Below are positions 3,490 to 20,000 of a stretch of 20,000 bases of DNA, one piece after another (positions within the stretch are counted from its first letter, which is position 1; every line of letters begins with the position of its first letter). The notes under the pieces were generated by a model. The model ran no database searches and was not told the origin of the DNA. It worked only from the letters and a program-made list of their open reading frames with translations. The stretch covers positions 3,243,594 through 3,263,593 of the forward strand of contig NC_057751.1 of NCBI RefSeq assembly GCF_004010195.1. Direction: 5' to 3'. Made by a program: the position numbers and the translations under genes. This DNA is from Chiloscyllium plagiosum. Its lineage: Eukaryota.

Positions 3490-3570
3490 AGCAGTCCCGA
3501 AGAAAGATTATACCTGAAACGGTGACTTCTGCACCTCCTGATGCTGCCTGGCTTGCTGTGGTCTTCCTGA
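3490..3570 (+). mobile_element. Penelope pseudo-LTR fragment with degenerate hammerhead
   Basis: AGTC-CCGAAGA-aagattatacct-GAAAC-GGT-GACT (3493-3527; AGTC/GACT = stem I), followed by CCTGATGCTGCCTGGCTTGCTG resembling the other Penelope-derived copies. Confidence 0.55.
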
Positions 3571-3835: not shown

Positions 3836-4227
3836 CTGAAAGGCTGTGCTGTTTTGGTTAGCCTTTTCCCTCTTCACCAGCCTTTCAGTGACCCCACCGT
3901 TGTCGTGTCACCTTCAGAGAATGTGTTGTGCAGAAGCAGCTAACCAGGAATGGTGAGCGACTGTCGAATTGAGTGTTGAGAGCTCGCTGTAAACAGGTGA
4001 AGGCAGTTTAGCAGCAACCTCAGTCAGTGGTCTCCCACCTTCACAATGACACGTGTCTGTAAACATTGAGAGAGTGCATTGTCAGGCAGTCATTCTGAAG
4101 TCAGCTCAACTGAAGTCAAGTCATATGGCTTCACAGTGTGGAAATTTCTGACCGTGAGCTGGATGAACCTCTGATCCACTCAGACAGTGGTCAAACCTGA
4201 GCCAAGCAGCAAGTTTTCTTACACTTG

Positions 4228-4926
4228 TTACAGGGCAGTGGCGACAATCTCTTGGTAGTGAATGTCAGTGCTCTGCTTTTCACTGCCCCTAAGATTGCTC
4301 ACCTTCAGCTCAGTGGAAAGCTGTTGGATGACTGTCTGCAGGCTCTGGTTCTGATGCAGCACCTCAGTGTAACTCTGCTGGAGCTGTTTCTGATACTCTA
4401 TCACTTGTTGCTTCTCCAGTTGCCACACGAGGCGCTCCTGGCGAAAGTTGCAGGAGAGCTCCCAGTTGGATTTCTTCTCCTGCTCCAGCTGGGCCTGTAA
4501 GCTTGCCAGCTCCTCTCGCAGAGCCACAGAGTCTTGCTCAGGCTTGCGTCGGGCCGGCTCCCTGCAGCCGCCGTGGCAGGCAGTGGGATCAGCCTGTGTC
4601 GCGTGGATGTCCAGCTCTTTGCAGCCAGCCAGCTTGTGCTTCAGCTGCAGGATCTGGCCGTCCTGCAGGCCCACCTTTTCCCTCAGCAGGTCAGCTGCGT
4701 TCTTCATACGCTGCCTCTCGTTTTCACACACCTCCAGCTCTCTGTCCCTGGCTTGCAGGCGGTTCTGCAGCTCCTCTACTGCCTGCTCTTGAGCAGATAG
4801 CTTTCCTTTGGCTTCTCTCAGCTGGCTCTTCAATGACAAGAGCTCACTGCTCTTCTGCATCAACTCAGCTTGCGAGTCTTTCAGCTGCTGTTTCAGCAGT
4901 GAGATCTCCCCTGACTTCTGGCAAAC
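4228..4926 (-). CDS. LZTS1: LZTS1-like, last coding exon (Fez1 coiled-coil/leucine zipper, C-terminal PDZ-binding motif)
   Basis: Acceptor ttgctgtttcAG|GTT at 4927/4926. VCQKSGEISLLKQQLKDSQ, ELEVCENE, FRQERLVWQLEKQQVIEYQKQLQQSY and DIHYQEIVATAL* match recalled LZTS1 motifs (VCQKSGEISLLKQQLKESQ...DIPYEDIIATEI). TAA at 4230-4228; 699 nt, phase 0. Confidence 0.92.
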   Translation of the reverse strand, partial: VCQKSGEISLLKQQLKDSQAELMQKSSELLSLKSQLREAKGKLSAQEQAVEELQNRLQARDRELEVCENERQRMKNAADLLREKVGLQDGQILQLKHKLAGCKELDIHATQADPTACHGGCREPARRKPEQDSVALREELASLQAQLEQEKKSNWELSCNFRQERLVWQLEKQQVIEYQKQLQQSYTEVLHQNQSLQTVIQQLSTELKVSNLRGSEKQSTDIHYQEIVATAL

Positions 4927-5924
4927 CTGAAACAGCAATGTTGCAGAAGCTGCTGTCAGTGCAGTGCATTATTCACATGGAACACCAACAAAACCTCCAT
5001 TTATTCTGTCTCTTGAAGGCAGTATACGATCCCTACCGCCTGACGGAAGGAAACGCCATGATAGACAAGAACATGGTCAAAAGGCTCGTATCAAAATCAA
5101 TATCTTCAAGCAGGAGAGGGCGGGGACTTTGGAGGAAACAGTGAAAATAGCACACTCCTGGGTGGAAATGGAGAAGTCTTTGGAGCCCTCCCACCAAATG
5201 GAAGCTAGGTACAAGTGCTAAGAAAGATTGGCTCTGCCTGCTGACAATATCACAGCAACAAACTCAAATCCAGATAATGCATTTCACAGCAATAGGAAAC
5301 ATATCACTGTGGTTCCTCCAACTCCAAATCTCCCATTCTTCTCACAAGCAACTCAAACCATTTTGTTATAAAGCAGCTTTACATTTAATATTGCTTGAAG
5401 GATTTTAATACCCCTTTCCCCAACTCCTGCAAACTTAGTTCAAGTTCTGTGAAAATGCCTGGACTGGTTTTTTAAAAATGCTTTAACAAGATTTCCTTGC
5501 AATCACATAATGAGGGATGACTGCTTCCTTGTCTGGTGAGGAGAATGTTTCATTTGGTTTAGATACTGTTTAATTGGTCATCGGAAAAATATTCCTTTAT
5601 GATGTGACCTGTGGAGTCAGTGGGCTGAGAGAAACAGTGAATTGCTCGATCCTCCATCTGAACAAAACAAACTCTCATGTCACTGCCTTGTTTTTCTGAA
5701 CAATGAGCAGCTTGGAGAGGTTTTTATTGAGTTGGAGGCAAGCCTCCTAAGAATGAGCTTCCCAGCTGATCTCTCCAAGTTCAGAAGAGAAAATCCTCTC
5801 CATCAATTCAGGGTGAAAGCACTTGATTCTTTTCATAGACCATCTCAAGATTTTATTTCCGAGCAACTGTGCCTGCAAGACTTGAGAGACAATTGGTGAC
5901 TTCACAATACGATGATGATGTCTA

Positions 5925-6070
5925 AAAGATGTTTGGATAAGTACTGGATAGGAAATGTTTGGAGGGATATGGGCCAGGAGCAGGCAGGTGAGACGAGGTG
6001 AGTTTGGGATTATGGTCAGCATGGACAGGTAGGACCGAAGGGTCTGTTTCTGTGCTGTTAGACTGTGTGC
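5925..6070 (+). mobile_element. CR1 LINE 3' tail
   Basis: TTTGGATAAGTAC...GGAGGGATATGGGCC...GGTCAGCATGGAC...GAAGGGTCTGTTTCTGTGCTGT; reverse-complement similarity to 14905-15060. Confidence 0.75.
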
Positions 6071-6959
6071 CAAGACTGTACATCAAGAGGAACAGATTAC
6101 AGTGCATCCTACACTTCAACCTTTTGCCTTTAAGAATAATTCAATGTTTTATTTCAGGCCAACACCAGCAGATAAATCTGTTTATTGTTTCTCTTTGCTG
6201 AAGAAGTTGTGTGTGTCTGTCTGTCTGTTTTGGGGATATTTATAGAGATGAGAATTAATACCATCACATGACTGACTGACTGTGTACATTAACTAACTTT
6301 TACATCTTTGTCGGAGAAGTTTTGTGTTGACATCAGAGACTCGGTAATAGATCTTGTTATTTCAAACCTGGTTTCATTGAGGTTTTAATTGGTCATCTTG
6401 GTAACAGGAAAAACATTTTTATTTTACACTGTGACCTATGGAGTTGTGGGACCAGAGAGACTGTGTACATCTCAAACCTCAGTCTAAAAAAGCACACTCA
6501 CAAGTGACTGTGTCAAAAACTAAACTGGGTGAGTTTGAACTGTCAATATTCAGTCCTGCTTGAAACACAAGAGAGACAGTAAAACACTTAAATAGTCTCA
6601 AGTGCAGATATATGTAAGAGTGTCAAGTGTGTGGACAGTGTTTTAGCCATTTATAGAGCCGTGTTTTACCTTACAGTGATGTGAAAGAGCTTGCCACTAA
6701 ATTCCAATGATGCTTTCCAGTTTGTTTATTCTGCTGAAGGTTTTCAAGAGAATTCTTGAGTTTGAAATGTACTCAACACACATGGTCCCTGTCTCTCAGA
6801 AGATTGGGACAACAATGAATGTCCTCAGAATTGTTGTGGCTTTCCCTCTCCGGTCAGTCTGAGAGTCTGTTACAGTCGCTGTAATATTGTAGCCTTCCCA
6901 GCGTTGGGAATACTGGTGTACCTTTTGATCAAGAGTGGGAGGGTGATTGAGAAACAAAG

Positions 6960-7470
6960 TAGGCTTGTTACAAACTGTACAGAGCCACAGCTGGAGTACT
7001 GTGTGCAAGTATGGTCTCCTTCATTAAGGAAGCCCACATTGCCAGTTCAATTGGCTTTTTCCTAAAAGGAAGCCATTATTTTCTTGAGGGAAGGATTAAC
7101 CAGGTTGGGCTGATACTCCTTGGACTGAGAGGTGATCTCATTGAAACTTGACAGGGTGGATACCAAGAGGATGTTTCCCCTTTGGGGAGAGTTTAAATTA
7201 AGGAGCACCGTTTAAAGACGGGGATGAGGAGGATTTGTTTTCTCTCAGAGGATTATGGGTCTTTTCCCCAGAGACAGCTGGAAGTTGGGTCATTGAATAT
7301 ATTCAAGGCTGAGTTTGAGACATTTTCAGTTGAAAGGAGTCCAGGGTTGTTGGGAGCAGACAGGAAAATGGACTTGAGATAAGAATGAGATTAGCTGTCA
7401 ATGTATTGGATAGCAGAGTGGGCTTGAGGGGCTGAATGGCTGACTCCTTCTCCAATTCACTAGTATTATG
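6960..7470 (+). mobile_element. CR1 LINE 3' fragment abutting the exon-2 splice donor
   Basis: CAGCTGGAGTACTGTGTGCAAGTATGGTCTCCT (LEYCVQVWSP), GAGAGGTGATCTCATTGAAAC (RGDLIE), terminal GGGCTGAATGGCTGACTCCT. Confidence 0.75.
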
Positions 7471-7476
7471 ACCTAC

Positions 7477-8187
7477 CTCCCATTTTGTTTCTTCCAGTTT
7501 TGGAGCAAGTTCAGTTTGTTCCCTTTGGTAGGCTTTGCATTTGGCGTTGAGGCTGTCATGCTCCCGCAGGAGTTGTGTGAAGTCTTCCTGAAGTTTGGCC
7601 TTGTCTTGCTGGAGTTGGCTGAGCTGGAGCAGGACCAGCTGGTGTTGGTTCCTTGGTGCCTTTGTTTTGGTGTCGCCTGACTGCGTCAGGCTGGTTACCT
7701 CCTGTTTGTCCTGGTCCAGTCTGAGGACAGCAGTTGCCTTCACATCCTGAGCTTCCCATCCAGCTTCTTTCTGGGGCTGGGGAAGGTTTGTGCTGTGGCT
7801 GGCCCGCCACTCCCTGCTCTCAGGGGTAGATGTGCTACAGCTTCCAGTGTTCAAGATGCTGTCCAGAGACCCCGCTCCCTGACTGATGTGATGCGCTGAG
7901 CCTCCAAACCTGCTGAGAAGGTTTGCTGTACTAACTGGCTCTGTGCTTGGAGTGGGCAGGCTAGACATGGAATTTCGACCCGAGTCTGACAGGGTACCAG
8001 AATGGTTTGTGTGTTTCTGCTTGTGAGCGTCATGCACCTCTGAATGCTTCGTTACCTTCGATAGATTGCCCTGAAATTCTCCCTTTTGATTTGCCAGCTT
8101 TCCTGAGATACAGTTCACATCGGCGTTGCCATTCCTGGGTGCCATCACCTTTAGCACTGTTGGCCTCACAATGTTCTTTCCTGTACT
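7477..8187 (-). CDS. LZTS1: LZTS1-like, second coding exon
   Basis: Acceptor tctctttcggtAG|AGT (exon starts 8187, STGKNIVRPT). Motifs SGTLSDSGRNSMSSLPT, SRFGGSAHHISQG, LQLSQLQQDK, LEETKWE. Donor GAG|GTAGGT at 7477/7476; 711 nt, phase 0 at both ends. Confidence 0.92.
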
Positions 8188-8529
8188 CTACCGAAAGAGA
8201 AGAAGACATAGTTAATCTCTCTTGTCTTGTATTGATGATAGGTTTCATCCACTTAACGGCCACTTTCTGCCCACTCCCTGACCAGCCCACACTCAGAGGA
8301 TTTACGCATAGGAAAATGGGCTGACACTGAAATGAGTTGTGGAGAGAATGGGGCAGTACAGGAGATTTCCCGCAGAAATTCCAGTGAAAGGTTACAAGTG
8401 GCCATTCATCCCATTTCCCTGGAGTTTCTACAGGTTGGTGAGGGTCAGGAACTCCTGTGCTTTTGGATGCAGTAACCTTGAAAACAAACCAAGTCTCTTC
8501 CAACAGCTCCTTCCAATCTCATGGCCACA

Positions 8530-8790
8530 GCCACTGAGTAAGACAATGGCAGCACTACCTGCAACTTCCTTTCCAAGCACATACCATCCTGACTTGGAAA
8601 CATATCACTGTTCCTTCAATGTCGCTGGGACAAAGCCCTGGAATTCCCTCCCTCAGGTCATTGTGGGTGTCCCTACATCACAAGGACTGCTGCGGTTCAA
8701 GAAGGCAGCTGATTACCCTCTTCACCAGGACAACTCGAGATAGATAATAAATACTGGCCCAGCCAGCAGCACCTACATCCCAAAAGCAGT
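8530..8790 (+). mobile_element. LINE (CR1/L2 clade) 3' end fragment
   Basis: CCATCCTGACTTGGAAACATATCACTGTTCCTTCA...GGTTCAAGAAGGCAGCT...AATAAATACTGGCC; reverse-complement similarity to 9360-9560. Confidence 0.65.
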
Positions 8791-8854
8791 GTGGGCCAGG
8801 GATCCCACACAATGCTCTCAGACTGTGATGCACAGGTCCTGTTTCCTGAGCAAC

Positions 8855-8935
8855 AAAGGTTCTGATGAAGGGTTACCAGACTCAAAACATCAACTCTGTG
8901 TTCTTCCCACAAATGGTGCTGAGTTTCTCATCAAT
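8855..8935 (+). mobile_element. Penelope pseudo-LTR fragment (second subfamily) with CpG-decayed hammerhead
   Basis: GGTT-CTGATGA-A-GGGTT-acca-GACTC-AAAAC-ATC-AACT (8858-8895); stems I and II can still pair. Confidence 0.55.
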
Positions 8936-9354
8936 AGCAGCTCATTGATATGGGATCTTACTGAGTGAAAACTGACCATCCTTTTTTCGGAAAATCACCA
9001 GTGCCTTCCAAAATTAATTTCTTCAGTTTGACAGCCGAATGACCATGTTGTGCCCAGTAACACTCTGAGTTCCTACCTGAAATCTAACAGCAATTTCAAT
9101 AAATCTTGCTGGCTTGTCCTGAACACCAGACCGTGTGAGAACAGTACGTCCCATCCTTCAGGTGGAAGGGAATGGGCAGCTAACATGAACCATACCCTTG
9201 TTTCACATCTCCCAGGAAGAAGCCATGTCTGGTCAGCTCTACAGATGTGCATTGGATCTGGACCAATGCAATCTTTTGATCTCAGTGGATGCATGAGAGC
9301 AAAGGGACAAAGGTTCAAGCCAGTAAATATAAATCCTAATGTTTTTGATAGATC

Positions 9355-9905
9355 CCTACAGGATGTCGGTGTTACTGGCTGTTGAACATTCACTGACTTT
9401 GAGAAGGTGGTGAGCTACCTTGGTGAGCATTGCAACGTAGGCCCACAACGATGTTAGGAATGGAGCTGCTGGGTTTGGACTCAGCAACACTGAAGGAACA
9501 GCGATATGTTTCCAAGTCAGGATATTGATAAGTTTGTAGGAGCGCATGCAGTTAGTGTTCCCCATTAACTCCTGCCCTTGTCTCCTGAATGACCAGGTTT
9601 GTGAGCTTGAAGATAGTATTGGGGGGGGAACCATGATGAGTTGCAGCATTGCATCTTGTAGATGGTACGTCCTGCTGCTACTGTATGTCCGTGGTGGAGG
9701 GATTGCATGTTGAAGGTGGTGGATGGGTTGTCAATCAAGTGGGCTGCTTTGTCCAGGATGGTGTCAGGTTTCTTGAGTTGTCAGAAATGCACCCATCCAG
9801 GCAACTGTGGAGTGTCCCATCACATTCCTGAGTTTTGCCTTGTAGATGGTGAACAGGATTTAGGGAGTTGGGAGGTGTGCTGCAGGATTCCTGGTCTGTG
9901 ACCTA
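9355..9905 (-). mobile_element. LINE (CR1/L2 clade) 3' fragment, inverted relative to 8530-8790
   Basis: CTGAAGGAACAGCGATATGTTTCCAAGTCAGGAT (about 9490-9523) is a near reverse complement of ATCCTGACTTGGAAACATATCACTGTTCCTTCA (about 8586-8618). Confidence 0.65.
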
Positions 9906-10252
9906 CCTGAAAATATTCTTCATGCAACGAGTGATGCATCATTAAATTCTACTTGAAAGGTGTGGAAGGTTGATAACCTCAAATAGGATGACTGAGAGAA
10001 AGAATTGTAATCTGAGGAGGTAAAGCAGGTTGGGCTGAAAGGCCTGTGGCAATTCTCTGAACTCAACAGAGCAATAAGGAGATAGCAGGATTGTTCTGAT
10101 GAGGTTCATTAACCGTAAGACGTGTTAGCCAAGCACCTGATCAAAGTCCAAAGTGAGCTCATTGATAGGAAAGTCTGCCATTTCCACCTGTTTGCACCAA
10201 ACTACTTCAGGTTATCAAAATGTAGGACCTTGTAGCTTTCTCACACATGTGA

Positions 10253-10540
10253 GCTACTGATCTTTCAGGTGAAGTTGGTATTGGTGTCCTCAGTGTCCCC
10301 TCCTTACAATCTTGTTTGTTGTGAAACTGTTCGAGGAGAAACAGAGGTCTGCAGATGTTGGAGATCAGAGCTGAAAATGTGTTGCTGGAAAAGCGCGCTA
10401 CTGATCTTTCAGGTGAAGTTGGTATTGGTGTCCTCAGTGTCCCCTCCTTACAATCTTGTTTGTTGTGAAACTGTTCGAGGAGAAAGTGAGGTCTGCAGAT
10501 GCTGGAGATCAGAGCTGAAAATGTGTTGCTGGAAAAGCGC
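10253..10540. repeat. 144-bp tandem duplication (2 copies, 3 mismatches)
   Basis: 10253-10396 and 10397-10540 both begin GCTACTGATCTTTCAGG and end GGAAAAGCGC. The unit is flank plus the first 64 bp of element copy B. Confidence 0.95.
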
Positions 10541-10697
10541 AGCAGCTCAGCCAGCATCCAAGGAACAGGAGAATCGATGTTTCGGGCATAAGACATTTCA
10601 GGGATTCCTGAAGAAGGGCTTATGCCCGAAACGTTGATTCTCCTGTTCCTTGGATGCTGCCTGACCTGCTGCGCTTTTCCAGCAACACATTTTCAGC
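10477..10697. mobile_element. Fold-back Penelope-derived element, copy B (80-bp inverted arms, 16-bp TSD)
   Basis: Arms 10513-10592 / 10619-10698 are near-perfect reverse complements. TSD TGTTGTGAAACTGTTC at 10461-10476 and 10698-10713. Confidence 0.85.
10601..10642 (+). ncRNA. Minimal type-I hammerhead ribozyme motif (putative)
   Basis: gggattc-CTGAAGA(10608-14)-A-GGGC-ttat-GCCC-GAAA(10628-31)-C-GTT^-gattctc: conserved CUGANGA and GAAA boxes, stem II, NUH triplet, imperfect stem I, loop-less stem III as in Penelope-associated minimal hammerheads. Confidence 0.65.
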
Positions 10698-10958
10698 TGT
10701 TGTGAAACTGTTCTCTGGCTGTACAGGTGTGTCCTGACATTCAGATCAATCAATCACAACCTTCAACATTGCACCTAAAATTACACTCAACTGGACCCTG
10801 CCATTTCCACTGAAATTCTGTCCCTGTTCCTGAGGAACTTGTACCTGGTGCTGTTGTGATTGACATAGACACTCATTTCATGATCACCTTTCCTGACTGG
10901 GATCTCCCAGGGCACTTTGCAAGCCCGGTCACTGTCCTGGGTGAGACAGGGCACTCAC

Positions 10959-11417
10959 CTTGTCAAGTTGGCCAGAGAATGGTACCAGTGTGGGTGGTGG
11001 CTCTTGCACATCCATGCTGACCGGTCCACCTTTCTGAGGCTTGACTTGGACAGTGCACTTCTTCAGCTTGCCTGTGTTGGTCAGCCCATTGGTTTTGCTG
11101 ATACTGATGTAGAAGAAGTCCTCTGTTTTCTCGCACTCAGAGTTTGCTTTGGAGCCTTTGTTGCTTGCTTGGTGGCTGGTGTCAAACCTCAGCAGGCCAT
11201 CTTGTTGCCTGAGGAGCTTGTGGAGGTGGGTAGCCTTGATGTTCCCATACTCCAAGGCTTTGCACTGTTTCCCTTGGAGATTCTGGCCTGAAATGAGGCT
11301 GCTCACACTCCCCATGTTGCTTTCGGCAGGCCAGCTAGGAAACACTGAGGCAAGCTGCGAGTTATTCACCTGAGACGGAAGCTTGATTTGGACGTGTATG
11401 GCATCTCCAGTTGCCAT
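10959..11417 (-). CDS. LZTS1: LZTS1-like, first coding exon (start at 11417 or at MGSVSS ATG 11315)
   Basis: MGSVSSLISG, RQQDGLLRF, KTEDFFYI and PPTLVPFSGQLDK match the recalled LZTS1 N-terminus (MGSVSSLISG...DGLLRF...KSEDFFYI...PPKLMPFSNQLE). Donor AAG|GTGAGT at 10959/10958; upstream acceptor tcttgcAG|G at 11457/11456. Confidence 0.9.
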
Positions 11418-11429
11418 AGCAAGTCCAAT

Positions 11430-11447
11430 TCAACAATTTAACTCCAT
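11430..11447 (-). promoter_or_regulatory. Upstream ORF MELNC* in 5' UTR
   Basis: ACC-ATG-G context; ATG GAG TTA AAT TGT TGA, in frame with and ending 12 nt before ATG 11417; lies inside the predicted exon (starts 11456). Confidence 0.6.
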
Positions 11448-11874
11448 GGTGTTGACCTGCAAGACAAGATTGGAAAGAGAAGGAGAATCTAATTAATTAA
11501 TTGTCAGCAATGAACCAATCAAGAAAGTCTTTTTGTTAATATTGTGCCTCTCACAACTACAGGATGTCCCAGTATGTTTCCCATCTCGGGGAATTCTTTT
11601 TGAACATTATAATCAGATTGCTGGCAACCGATCTAATGCACAGAAACCTCCCAGCAACAACAATGTGGTCATGTGATCACCTTTTCTTGTGCTCTTGTTT
11701 AGGGGATAGAAATTGGTCAAGGTGTTGGGGAAACCCATCCGCTTTTGTCTGGACTGGAAATTGTGGGATCTTCTCTGGCCACTTAAGGGTGACAGACCAT
11801 GAATCGTTTTAATTATGGCACTTGTGACAGCACAGCACCCTCTCGAGTGTCGACCTAGAATTCTGAGCCAAAAA

Positions 11875-12790
11875 CCACAGCACATCTATTCGATGGCCTG
11901 GTCTCCACAGCCCTTGTATCAATGAGTTCCATAGATTCACCACCCTCTGGCTGAAAAGGTTTCCCCTCAAGTCACTTCTAAAGGGTTGTCCCTTCACTCT
12001 GAGGCTGTGCCCTTGAGTCCTCATCTCTCTGACCAGTGGAAACATCTTCTCCACGTCCACACGATCAACAGGCCCCTCAATATTCTCCAAGTTTCAATCA
12101 GCGTCCCCCTCAACCTCCTAAACTCCATGGAATGTAGACCCAGAGTCCTCAACTGCCCGTCATATGACATACCTTTCATTCCCAGGATTGTGCTTGTAAA
12201 CCTCCAATAGACCCCCTCCAAGACAGCACATCCTTCCTTCGATATGGAGCTCAAAAGTATTCCAGACCCTTATGCAACCTTAACAACACACTTTTGCATT
12301 CTCAACCACTTGAAATGAATGCTAACATTGCATGTGCTTTCCTAACTGCTAACAGAACCTGCATGTTCACCCTGAAGAGAATCCTGAAACAGGACTCCCA
12401 AGAACAGTACTTGAGATTTCCCCATTTAGAAAATAATCTCTCCCTCTATTCTTCTGACCAAACGTGCAAACCTCTGACTTTCCCACATTATATTCCCTGC
12501 ACCACTTTTTTGGCCCTCACCTAACCTGTCCAAGACCTTCTGCAGCCTCCCCATTTCCTCAACAGCATCTATCCTTCCACCTATCTTTGTGTCATCTGCA
12601 AACTAAGCAGCAGTGCTCTCGATTCCTTCGCCCACATAATGAATGTATAACGTAATCATTGTAGTCCCAACAGTGAACTCTGTGCAACTCCATGGTCTGC
12701 GATCCTGAGAAAGACCTCCTTTTATCCCCACTCTCTGCCTTCTGCCAGTCAGCCAATCCTCTCTCTGTACCAGTACGCTGCCCCTCACAC
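11875..12790 (-). mobile_element. CR1 LINE ORF2 C-terminal remnant
   Basis: ORF-track peptides LEGVYWRFTSTILGMKGMSYDGQLRTLGLHSMEFRRLRGTLIETWRILRG and DRVDVEKMFPLV...GHSLRVKGQPFRSDLRGNLFSQRVVNLWNSL are typical CR1 ORF2 C-terminal motifs; frameshifted. Confidence 0.9.
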
Positions 12791-13829
12791 CATCTTATGA
12801 AGTAGCGATTTAAAGCAGGGAGTGGGAATTGATCCAAAGAAACATGAATGTAAGATGGACTGAGATTTCATGCAGGCTTTCTGACGTGCAGAAGGCCTGA
12901 CTACACACAGCACCAGGACACCTCCAGAGACAATCTGCAGGACTGGAATGGGAAATGAGAGCACTCACTGCTGCTTCACAGGATCAAATTGATTAAAGTG
13001 ACATCGAAGCAATTTGAAAAAAAAATCATTCATATCTCAAGGGATAAGATTCCTGAATCACTCCCACTCTCAGATACAGACCTTGATGAAGATGATTAAT
13101 TAAATGGCCAAATTACAATTTCATGTCGTAAATATTGCTGGCAGAATTGAATGTACAATAATCTATCCCTATAATTGTCTCACAGGGCTATGAGTGTTTA
13201 CTCTCCAGGATTCGCTGGGGTGTAGTGGTTGCAAATGTCTTATTTATGTTTGTGGATGGCATTTTGGGAATCTTATTTGCCCTGTCTTAACCAGCCACTT
13301 CCTAGGTGAAGAATGTATACTTTAATCATCTGTTTGAAAATGTTCTCACAGACAATTCACATCACACAGAGTGCTCACAGTTCAAGCTGATAATTATTGG
13401 GGTGGGTAGGAGTAAAAATAATTGCAGTAAGACTGTCTGTAATCAGCAGCACAAGATGTGTGTTGGAGCTCTGCAGATATTGTCAGTTTAATGTGATATG
13501 GGCTTGGCAAATCTGTTTGGGGGCATTCCTGGAGAAATCATCTCACATACGCACACCTCACTGGTCTATTCTCCGAATGGGCACTTGAGAAAGGAACAGT
13601 CTTCTACTGACTTCATCAGTTGACCTTGAAGCAAGTAATTTCTCTGTCACTGATATCACTCAATGGAAGTGTTCAGAGGAAATGAAAGGTTTTTTTTTTA
13701 AAGACCAGATCTTCCCTGTGTTTTTTCTGCAGCGAGTATGATTAACTCCTCATTCCTGGGAACTGCTCTCACTACCTGGGAACTTACTGTAGAAGAATTG
13801 TGTGGACCTGTCTGAGTCGGAAAGAGACA

Positions 13830-14690
13830 GGAGATGCTGGAGAAACAGAGTGAATGTTGCCAGTCTGATATAACATCTTTACAACTGCAGAGGACTGGGA
13901 AAAGACAGGTTTCACTCGACAGAAAAGGAGGAAGGAGGAGCTGGGATAGATGGCCCAGAGTGAAAAACAAACACAAAGGCAGGATTCAAGATAATAAGGA
14001 AGAGATATAGCTGAAGAGTAGGTGTTAATGGCAAGGGTTACCAGCAACAAGTAGGTCAGCGCGACCGAGAACAATGCTGTACAATGAGACACAGGTTCTT
14101 GGAGGTGAAGAGTATCTTCAAAGTGGAGGACAGTGTTCATGGTCTGAAGCTGCTGGAGTCGGTGCTGAGTCTGGAAGGCTGCAAATTGCTGGAACAGTAA
14201 ATGAGAGGCATTTTCTCCAGCTTGCAGTGGGCTTTGCTGGAGAATAGAGGCATACCTCAGACAGAAATGCTGGCACAACCAGAGGATATGTATTCAAATG
14301 ACCAGTGACGAGAAACTCGCTCATTCCTGCAGAACAGAGGAGAGGTGTTCCGCAAAGGGGTCGCCTAGTCTGTGTTTGGTCTTGTCAGTGTACAGGAGCT
14401 GAAAATGTGTTGCTGGAAAAGCGCAGCAGGTCAGGCAGCATCCAAGGAGCAGGAGAATCGATGTTTAGGGCATGAGCCCTTCTTCAGATTCTCCCGCTCC
14501 TTGGATGCTGCCTGACCTACTGCGCTTTTCCAGCAACACATTTTCAGCTCTGATCTCCAGCATCTGCAGCCCTCACTTTCTCCTCAGTGTACAGGAGACC
14601 ACATTGTAAGATGGGTAGATACATAGTCTAAGCAGATTACTGCTACCCCTCGAAGGTGTGTCTGGGGCTTCAGACAGTGAGAAGGGAGGA
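13830..14690 (-). mobile_element. Old Penelope-like element remnant (GIY-YIG endonuclease C-half plus 3' region), interrupted by copy C
   Basis: After removing the insert and one TSD, the minus strand from 14606 reads QCGLLYTDKTKHRLGDPFAEHLSSV (cf. PLE CGLLYIGETKRRLGDRFAEH), then EFLVTGHLN and KLEKMPLIYCSSNLQPSRLS (cf. KLEEQHLIFRLGTLQPxGLN). Limits approximate. Confidence 0.75.
14399..14583. mobile_element. Fold-back Penelope-derived element, copy C (64-bp inverted arms, 14-bp TSD)
   Basis: Arms 14396-14459 / 14487-14550. TSD TCAGTGTACAGGAG at 14385-14398 and 14584-14597. Minus-strand CTGAAGA-A-GGGC-TCAT-GCCC-TAAAC-ATC in the spacer. Confidence 0.85.
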
Positions 14691-16689: not shown

Positions 16690-16862
16690 AGGGCTCCTCT
16701 GACTTCTGAGAGAGAAGACTGGTGGTGGTTTAACCTGAGGGTCACCATGCCTGAGATGAGGGGAGAGATTGAGAAGGAGAGTCCTTCATAGTAGCCTCAG
16801 TCAGTGCAGGAATTCAACCCACACTGTCGGCCTCATTCTGCGTTCAGCCAATCAGCTGAGCG
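16690..16862 (-). mobile_element. tRNA-derived SINE fragment
   Basis: Minus strand: GCTCAGCTGATTGG (A-box-like)...GGGTTGAATTCC (B-box-like)...GGTGACCCTCAGGTTAAACCACCACCAG body. Confidence 0.6.
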
Positions 16863-16962
16863 AAACCCCATTTTTGAGACAGAGCATTCCTGTGAACCAG
16901 GTTTTCTGAATCGGGGAGGACAGAAAAATCACTTCAATCTCAGCTGGTTCATGTGAACATTT

Positions 16963-17288
16963 GGGGCGGTACGATGGCTCAGTGGTTAGCACTGCTGCCT
17001 CACAGCAACAGGGACCCGGGTTCAATTCCCGGCTCAGGCGACTGACTGTGTGGAGTTTGCACATTCTCCCCGTGTCTGTGTGGGTTTCCTCCGGGTGCTC
17101 CGGTTTCCTCCCACAGTCCAAAGATGTGTAGGTTAGGTGAATTGGCCATGGGAAATTGCCCGTAGTGTTAGGTGAAGGGGAAAATGTAGGGGAATGGGTC
17201 TGGGTGGGTTGCGCTTCAGCGGGTCGGTGTGGACTTGTTGAGACGAAGGGCCTGTTTCCACACTGTAGGGAATCTAATCGAATCGAAA
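16963..17288 (+). mobile_element. HE1-type V-SINE (tRNA-derived), near full length
   Basis: A box TGGCTCAGTGG (16975-16985), B box GGTTCAATTCC (17019-17029), V-domain TGTGTGGAGTTTGCACATTCTCCCCGTGTCTG...GGTTTCCTCCGGGTGCTCCGGTTTCCTCCCACAGTCCAAAGA, CR1-like tail GGGCCTGTTTCCACACTGTA plus AATCT/AATCG repeats. Confidence 0.92.
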
Positions 17289-19481
17289 ACAAAGTGTCTC
17301 CATAATCTTCGGTTCTTTATCGGTTGTCACAACACTTTGAATCAGCAAACATCTGGTCCTCTTTGATCACCACCTGTTAGAGATATTTGATGTCTGGACA
17401 AAGCCAGTGGAGGTTCTTCACCTGGGGAAGTTGTCAAAGGTGTTCCATCGGGAATGTTCTGGGAGGTAGTTGCAGTCTGTTTCCTGTTGGTGCCTGGCCC
17501 AGTTGCAACTCAGCTTTCAGTTCACTTACTGCTTAAGCTGTTCCAATCAGACCCTGGCACAAATCCGGACAACAGCTTGGACTTCTCACCAACCCTCCGA
17601 ACAAAGCCACTTCAAATGATGGCGAACAGATAATATATTGGAGACTCTGAAATTGATCAATGGGAACAGAGCTCAGTCCCCCTCTCAACCTCTGACAACA
17701 TATTGGTCAAGTTTAATAGGTCATTGATGCACTTCTGCTAAGCCTGATTTAGTCTAGATTTTCCCTCTGATTTGGGGGCAGCTTTCATTCCAAGTTGTGG
17801 CCACTAAAATATTGTTTGGCACCAAAGAAGAGGAGGAAGATGAGAATCTGTGTTGCGTCATGAATTGTGTTCAGGAATGGGCTGATGTGATGGGAACGCA
17901 TCGAAGAGAAGCTTTCACAATGGAATTGAAGAATTATTCAAAGAAGGAGAATCATTGCAGGGATGTGGGAAAAGGACAGGGGTTCACAGAGAGCTCTCTC
18001 AGGGCTCAATAGCTTTCTCCTGTTCTGCAAGTGATTGACAGTGCATGACATCTCCGTCAGATGGTAATGCAAGATGCTGAGCACAACTGTGTTGCTTCCT
18101 TCATGGAAAAGAGGGAATATAGACAGGTCAGATATTCATGGCCTTCCTTTCACTGGAGAACTGACAACTGGCTGTCATCCTGACAGTGCAGTAGCATTGA
18201 CAGACTTGAGCAAGGAAAGAAATAGATTTCAAATAGAATCTCATTATCCTTGAAATAATGCACACTTTCACAGGATTAGTCTTGAAACTTACGGACGGAG
18301 CCTCTGTAGAATTCCCCCCTCCCCTGGCAGAGACAGGACTGTAACAGAGCCCTGCTGCGAACCGAAAGAGAAGGTGGATGTGCTTGGGGATTGTACTCCC
18401 CTGCCCTGCTGTCCTGATTTCACTGGTTCCCTCCTCACCATTTGCTGAATGGCATTCAAGCAACTTTCCCTGATGACCTGGGTGCAAAAAATGCACTGAT
18501 TTATTTGGTGAGGCTTTGAAGAGAGCCAAACAGTGAAGGCTGCTTTCATCTTGCAGTCGTGGACTTGGATCTCGGTTGTTGGGACTGCCATCTCAGTTGA
18601 CAGCACTACATTGGGGGAAGTGCAGCATTATCCATTTAAGGACTGAGAGCTGTCAGAGGCCAATCCTGAACTGGGACAGCGACTCGCCTGAGAAACGTTG
18701 ACAAAGCATTTCTCACATTGTTTCCCAAGTTGTCTCTTGTTTTCCAGTCTTATTTGGAAAAGTTCCAGTGTTAATGATGAGCCCTGTCTGCTGCTTTTGG
18801 ATAGGAGCCAACCAACCTGTCATAATGTGCAGGAAGCCGATACATACCTCTCAACTGCTTGAAGTTACACTATCAATGGGCTGTGCGGTCTAGCGTAGCA
18901 CCCAGTACAGATTCCCAATGTGCCCAGAGTTTACGTATATCGTCCACTGAGCAGACATGGAATGACAATTGGCTGGCTCGGCACCAAAACGTCAACCGAA
19001 TGCAAATCTGCCATCAGAAACAAGAGGTAGAGACAGGATCAGTGTTCATCCTCCATGATATTCACCAGATTGCAAACTACCAACACTGAGAAAACTCATG
19101 GCTCCAGCAATGGACAATCCATTCAGCAGTTAATGCTGCACACTCTCTGATGTCTCGGTCATGTGTTTTCCCATCTGAGTTACACAAGGTATGTTGTGCA
19201 CTGAAACAAGAGGAGTGTCTGCAATGGTGGAGAAATGTTGGAGTGCTAAAAGCTGGAGCACACATTGCCACAGGATGGAACAGTCTGGAGAAGCACAGAC
19301 AACATTGATTGGCAAGAGGAAAAAGAGCAAAACCCACCGAACCCTCATTGGCAACACATGGCTCCTCACAGTCAGAAAACGTTGTCTCATGTGAGATATG
19401 GCCATATTTCAGCTGCAGTTCATACATCTTGCAGCAAATTCTTCCACACACTGACACTCTGCACATGCTGTGGACAGAATC

Positions 19482-20000
19482 CAGTAACTCTGATGACAGT
19501 AATTCTGAACTGGACGGACAGTAACTCTGACTGTACAGGAACTCTGACTGTACAGTAACTTTGAGCTGGACAGTAACTCTGAACTGGACGGTTACTCTGA
19601 ACTGTACAGTAACTCTGACTGTACAGTAACTCTGAGCTGGACAGTAACTCTGAACTGGACAGTAACTCTGAACTGGACAGTAACTCTGAACTGGACAGTA
19701 ACTCTGAGCTGGACGGTAACTCTGAACTGGACAGAACTGGACGGTAACTCTGACTGGACAGTAAATCTGAACTGGACGGTAACTCTGAACTGGACCGTAA
19801 CTCTGAACTGGACAGTAACTCTGAACTGGACGGTTACTCTGAACTGGACGGTAACTTTGAACTGGACGGTAACTCTGAACTGGACGGTAACTCTGAACTG
19901 GACAGTATATCTGAACTGGACGGTAACTCTGAACTGGACCGTAACTCTGAACTGGACAGTAACTCTGAACTGGACGGTAACTCTGAACTGGACGGTAACT
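19482..20000. repeat. 18-bp minisatellite (AACTCTGAACTGGAC[A/G]GT)n, continues beyond window
   Basis: Period 18 read directly (e.g. ACTGGACGGT at 19861 and 19879); some 17-bp and truncated variants near the left edge. Confidence 0.97.

Follow-up and report, generated by a model that had tools for sequence, protein, structure and literature searches.

A hammerhead motif in an LZTS/Fez1-family intron of Chiloscyllium plagiosum as part of an abundant Penelope-like retrotransposon family

A first-pass annotation of a 20,000-nucleotide stretch of the Chiloscyllium plagiosum genome (the window, in whose positions all coordinates are given) placed a hammerhead ribozyme with an intact core in intron 1 of an LZTS gene, antisense to that gene, and proposed that the inverted repeat surrounding it acts as a built-in off-switch. 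Is this a ribozyme at work in the intron, or one copy of a repeat that happens to lie there? We conclude with high confidence that the motif is the pLTR hammerhead of an abundant Penelope-like retrotransposon, and that the 222-bp insertion carrying it is probably an inert stub, with a mirror arm that likely arose as the element inserted.

The hammerhead core and its host gene

Read letter for letter, the plus-strand core (10608-10635) begins with C3 at 10608 and comprises CUGAAGA (10608-10614), an extra A at 10615, stem II GGGC/uuau/GCCC (10616-10627), GAAA (10628-10631), CG, U10634 and U17 at 10635. Stem I joins 10601-10607 to 10636-10642 in seven pairs, including one U-U and one G-U, and the predicted cut lies between 10635 and 10636. 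The core, stem II, stem I with its U-U and G-U, and the predicted cleavage position at 10635, which is the correct one for the motif, are thereby confirmed base by base as first annotated. The core bases of the minimal hammerheads (min-HHRs) of Penelope-like elements (PLEs), C3 U4 G5 A6 N7 G8 A9 ... G12 A13 A14 A15.1 ... U16.1 H17, are all present, with H17 = U, and the description as a minimal type-I PLE hammerhead with a palindromic (ACGU) helix III stands. Its hallmarks are those of the metazoan PLE pLTR min-HHRs (Cervera & De la Peña 2014, PMC4209133): an extra nucleotide between A9 and 10.1 (A10615), G10.1-C11.1 (G10616-C10627), palindromic 15.2-16.2 (ACGU, 10631-10634), no helix III loop, a short helix I and mostly dispersed single copies. 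It departs from them in carrying U as H17, and from the Schistosoma forms in the same source, whose stem II has 7-8 bp, in a stem II of 4 bp.

A min-hammerhead descriptor gave one match on both strands of the window and none in 300 windows simulated to match its dinucleotide composition, so the motif is not a product of chance. No Rfam hammerhead covariance model was among the 16 matches at E<=5, and the Rfam matches at the locus were sub-threshold and mostly miRNA hairpin models, mirroring the palindrome.

On its own, the 42-mer adopts stems I and II at -11.7 kcal/mol, with a closing-pair probability of 0.83 and an unremarkable z of -1.5. Native copies read ...CCTCATTC directly 5' of the core, as does the loose-end consensus of 90 RNA reads, and the outer GGG of stem I (10601-10603) is therefore junction sequence and not part of the motif as had been annotated. 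The outermost three of the seven pairs thus rest on junction bases, and with native flanks (from L083) the stem-I closing pair has a probability of at most 0.07 in four folds. To call the core intact was likewise generous: every core base is there, but the cleavage site is GUU against GUC in the family, a tandem partner is lacking and the core is on the strand opposite the host gene. GUU counts among the permitted NUH sites, GUC and GUA being the fastest (PMC3138052); single min-HHRs showed zero cleavage in vitro and their dimers were cleaved weakly (PMC4209133), and the anole hammerhead required the protein of its element (PMC11167929).

The host is recognized at the LZTS/Fez1 family level by a Fez1 match on 4231-4968 (E 2e-50). 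The intron that holds the motif spans 8188-10958 on the minus strand (GT at 10958, AG at 8188, with a spliced junction in the X12 contig) and follows the first coding exon, and its donor at 10958 is 316 nt from the motif, in agreement with the roughly 320 nt first given. That exon (10959-11456, minus strand, ATG at 11315) carries an AG acceptor at 11457-58, and a probably-RNA contig extends more than 400 nt past it on both sides. Because of the upstream acceptor and the spliced sequence beyond it, this is not exon 1, and the earlier label of intron 1 was wrong. No intact hammerhead core follows any CTGA on the host (minus) strand, and since the left arm of the insertion lacks CUGAAGA, there is no hammerhead on the strand of the host gene. 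The hammerhead copy on the opposite strand is likely inert.

Layout of the insertion and its repeat family

The 222-bp insertion (10477-10698) is flanked by a 16-bp target-site duplication (TSD) at 10461-10476, identical to 10698-10713, the first base of the right copy being common to the element end. Its left part is an inverted pLTR arm on the minus strand (10477-10592, +12 to +127 of the family unit) with five differences from the family majority, and its right part an untailed forward arm on the plus strand (10604-10698, -4 to +91). The left arm alone bears a tail of about 36 nt (10477-10512), as it reaches +127 and the right arm +91; a tail on one arm has been described before (PMC3846280, PMC8557442, PMC11167929). 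Between the arms lies an 11-nt junction (10593-10603) that ends in the GGG giving the outer three bases of stem I and resembles a slipped repeat of left-arm sequence; comparable junction inserts occur in L014, L021 and L022. The inverted repeat of about 80 bp first noted around the core is present, as 85 nt at 93% (10513-10597 and 10614-10698), and each arm carries sequence absent from the other.

This layout of an inverted 5'-truncated pLTR, a one-sided tail and a TSD is that of the EN+ PLE insertions already published (Pen2a_Av, PMC3846280; PMC8557442), which share head-to-head arms, a 30-40 nt tail on one arm, a TSD and a short palindrome or overlap at the junction. Unlike in Pen2a_Av-type insertions, no ORF separates the arms, which consist merely of about 95 and 116 nt of pLTR, and the TSD, 16 bp long here and 11-20 bp across the family, is 8-10 bp in those insertions (PMC3846280, PMC8557442). 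Beside the insertion, a 144-bp segment made up of left flank and the left arm's first 64 bp is duplicated in tandem (10253-10396, with the other copy at 10397-10540 and three differences between them). The duplication has GC microhomology at its junction and ends inside the left arm, and a contig of run X9 crosses 9900 to 10373 unbroken; it is either a later duplication beside the palindrome or an assembly artefact or merged haplotypes.

When the left arm is included, the RNA folds as one long hairpin (-166.4 kcal/mol, z -21.6): stems I and II have probabilities of 0.000 in all folds that begin no later than 10580, and 39 kcal/mol must be spent to impose the active fold when the left arm is included. 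A read-through transcript of the locus would fold into a hairpin of about 90 bp hiding the core. Folding models hence uphold the first-pass annotation in that the long hairpin buries the core, but not in its being a built-in off-switch, for an arm of this inverted kind is already known to result from insertion (PMC3846280, PMC8557442) and occurs with varied junctions in 45 of 115 sampled insertions, which makes the hairpin a by-product; no sign was found that the hairpin of this locus differs from those of other insertions among the 115. In our reading, the inverted arm would remove function rather than regulate it. That a working hairpin-gated ribozyme on an antisense transcript affects the LZTS gene is an idea to which we give very little credence. 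All core bases are present with a permitted GUU site, the junction GGG lengthens stem I to seven pairs so that the isolated 42-mer folds correctly, and a G before ATTC is common in the family (counts below), but single min-HHRs go uncleaved in vitro and the locus offers no tandem partner, the core is fully paired once the left arm has been transcribed first, an order favoured co-transcriptionally, the change at position 17 fits CpG decay, and such a hairpin is no peculiarity of the locus.

Compared with the majority of the 115 sampled insertions, the forward arm has two differences, the +43 subfamily site and C17→U at 10635, a CpG, where the change fits CpG decay. The 3.56-Gb genome holds 1,643 exact matches to the 35-base core in the U17 form of this copy and 29,004 in the C17 form of the family, and the reversed controls, searched genome-wide, have no match. 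The motif is not locus-specific; it is one of tens of thousands of near-identical Penelope-type copies, several times the 4,000-9,000 of coelacanth and Xenopus (PMC4209133, where sharks go unnamed in the accessible portion). In sister subfamilies loop II and N7 are altered and the U-U of stem I is replaced by U-A, core and stem II are unchanged, and two-sided changes were not seen. One such subfamily, to which L105, L106, L108, L112, L122 and others belong, differs in its loop II and has a stem I of 4 bp that pairs throughout, and is a better candidate for a cleavage assay.

The whole unit is matched at 92-95% by 29 other loci, and arms agree within copies, as would suit a palindrome moving as a preformed, MITE- or retrozyme-like non-autonomous element. 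We hold this to be unlikely, as junctions vary widely among the whole-unit copies, arm lengths form a continuum, 57 of the 115 insertions are solo, and the copies lack the head-to-tail tandems that define animal retrozymes (bioRxiv 10.64898/2026.07.22.740005). The insertion resembles the non-LTR retrozymes of that report in being non-coding, PLE-derived and equipped with a type-I hammerhead; unlike them, with their at least two head-to-tail units with complete hammerheads, it is head-to-head with one core, and identity with a non-LTR retrozyme was rejected on this ground.

Three further family copies lie in the window. That at 14396-14585 is a second inverted insertion in the opposite orientation, with a TSD of about 13 bp and G12 of the core changed to U; the tailed arm there starts at +29, the predicted cut site, and has one base in common with the other arm. 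A solo tailed copy on the minus strand (2815-2943) has a CUGAUGA core, G12 changed to A and a TSD of about 15 bp, and an older, diverged copy (3495-3567) has 75% identity. An 18-bp minisatellite of at least 29 copies (19482-20000) continues past the window end, and frames in 11800-12870 and 16850-17320 look like what we take to be CR1-type LINE fragments and a SINE-like repeat.

Longer copies lead to the parent element, as they run upstream into a GIY-YIG frame (L036, Pfam 23.3 bits, over the cut-off). In L093 and L103 a gap-free stretch places this same hammerhead 467 nt downstream of the GIY-YIG motif, and in L111 and L114 the sequence is uninterrupted from RT through EN to pLTR. A 674-aa ORF in L124 matches RVT_1 at 31 bits (over the cut-off) and GIY-YIG at 21.4 bits (just under the cut-off), with DKG at 61, YIDD at 302 and IIYCIRCSRCGLLYIG at 559 (criteria of PMC8557442), two cysteines within the nuclease core and, between RT and EN, the CX4CX2C linker CNRRRCNTC at 522, which conforms to the CX2-5CxxC linker of Neptune/Nematis that is absent from Penelope/Poseidon. 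The parent ORF is thus an RT followed by a C-terminal EN of GIY-YIG type, which adjoins this pLTR, as in EN+ PLEs, and by the sequence criteria of PMC8557442 the motif is assigned to the pLTR end of an RT plus GIY-YIG Penelope-like element of Neptune/Nematis type. Among eight long copies, each gapped or 5'-truncated, no full-length pLTR-ORF-pLTR element was found, and a Pfam GIY-YIG profile search of the genome yielded one weak match, which was left out. An ATG 3' of the cut site (family unit +47 onward) opens a frame through the tail (10477-10575, minus strand) that reads MLPDLLRFSS... in the copy at 2815 and may be where the parent ORF begins; copies that connect this ATG with the RT were not found.

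Formation of the inverted arms

The family statistics come from 115 independent insertions anchored on the exact 35-mer in contig C1 alone; four second matches of one insertion, L144 (mis-anchored) and L061 (unrelated) were dropped before counting, and 30 loci matching the whole unit were excluded as selected for the palindrome. Inverted insertions number 45, solo copies 57, and 13 are gapped at the 5' end. Junctions of the inverted insertions vary, with overlaps of 1-3 nt or with inserts, and a TSD of 11-20 nt was found for 37 of the 45. Exactly one arm is tailed in 43 of the 45 pairs and both arms in none; of the two exceptions, one has a tailed arm that is very short and the other an arm that is truncated. 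Given that solo copies are tailed in 23 of 57 cases, 48% mixed pairs would be expected if the choice were independent, against the 43 of 45 observed (p 6e-12). Of 149 diagnostic cells, 8 are discordant between the two arms of an insertion, compared with 30% between insertions, and one discordant site was seen in 8 of 41 pairs. The 5' ends lie at -6 to 0 in 77 of 102, and the longer 5' extension belongs to the untailed arm in 20 pairs, to the tailed arm in 6 and to neither in 17, statistics that are biased by the exact 35-mer anchor and the single contig. In the inverted pairs L037, L050, L058, L146 and L179 the arms differ at a non-CpG subfamily site, possibly from two templates per insertion.

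The one-tail rule together with arms matching one template fits priming from both target strands, and twin priming, that is, two primings on one RNA, one per nicked strand, is the explanation towards which we lean, although the concordance of the arms could stem from later gene conversion in the hairpin. The endonuclease would nick both target strands about 14-16 nt apart, and both 3' ends would prime RT on a shared uncleaved RNA, the one from the tail end (+127), the other from an internal site (+91). The two cDNAs would stop near the likely start of the RNA at ATTC, 4 nt before the core, and their 3' ends would join via 1-3 nt of microhomology, sometimes with inserted bases. The ATTC, a putative transcription start, sits in what we take to be an initiator-like context. 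With the anole PLE protein (Anolis Poseidon PAc; Frangieh et al. 2024, PMC11167929), both strands are cut and extended in vitro, which the genomic pattern here implies as well, and RT likewise starts at two sites bounding the tail with uncleaved RNA as the template; two-strand extension is not tied to inverted arms in the accessible portion of that paper. A literature search, with most subscription journals outside its reach, found no published statement of the two-strand-priming explanation.

The same identity of the element is compatible with another origin of the mirror arm, namely self-priming (fold-back) on the antisense template, with the tail asymmetry produced by endonuclease resolution, as proposed in PMC3846280 and PMC8557442; we consider it possible but distinctly less probable. 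Fold-back accounts for the identity of the arms and for tails on one side, and it agrees with the 20:6 skew, the untailed arm being longer 5' in 20 of 43 pairs, whereas the polarity is opposite by more than 5 nt in 6 of the 43. The junctions are overlaps or inserts rather than loops, the two-strand extension in vitro (PMC11167929) is a further point against it, and both sites look like starts, since solo copies, many of them flanked by TSDs, end at the one or the other.

Possible traces of cleavage and the value of the family

To look for a footprint of cleavage, copies were counted by the position at which they begin. Those beginning at +24, +27, +29 (the cut site), +31 and +37 number 267, 111, 486, 591 and 305; for each flanking dinucleotide allowed, the values are 30, 28, 81, 98 and 34. 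Inverted junctions account for most of the excess at +29 and +31 (23 of the 30 and 13 of the 15 loci that were inspected), and there microhomology is an equally good explanation; the estimates for solo copies at the same five positions (12, 0, 16, 7 and 11) show no clear spike. In a check for a G derived from an RNA cap, the base before ATTC is G in 3,444 copies and T in 646, in counts that cover G and T prefixes and are confounded by the inverted arm's own GG; in 20 sampled copies it is G in 11, A in 7 and T in 2. Among single-cell poly(A) reads of run X13, sampled at about 2%, 1,066 were placed and 98% of these continue into unlike sequence, that is, other copies; begins or ends showed no pile-up, with none in the unique flanks, in a library type that cannot show cleavage ends, and run X14 gave no placed reads.

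For a fuller form of twin priming we see the chances as evenly balanced: the PLE RNA would be primed twice obligately, at the tail end and at the internal site, from both nicked strands, and the cDNAs would run off a capped 5' end before the hammerhead (the extra G or GGG) and be end-joined, while the threefold excess of arm ends at and directly after the cut site may record occasional cleavage in vivo.

The locus itself matters little, being one stub among tens of thousands, both its ribozyme and its insertion of kinds already known; a role of the ribozyme, if any, would belong to the RNA of the parent element, through the dimer- or protein-assisted cleavage of the literature. The value lies in the family statistics. 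The family is a large natural data set on how Penelope elements form their inverted ends and tails, the origin of which is called undefined in PMC8557442, and the strict one-tail rule with matching arms yields predictions that are testable in the existing in vitro PLE system.
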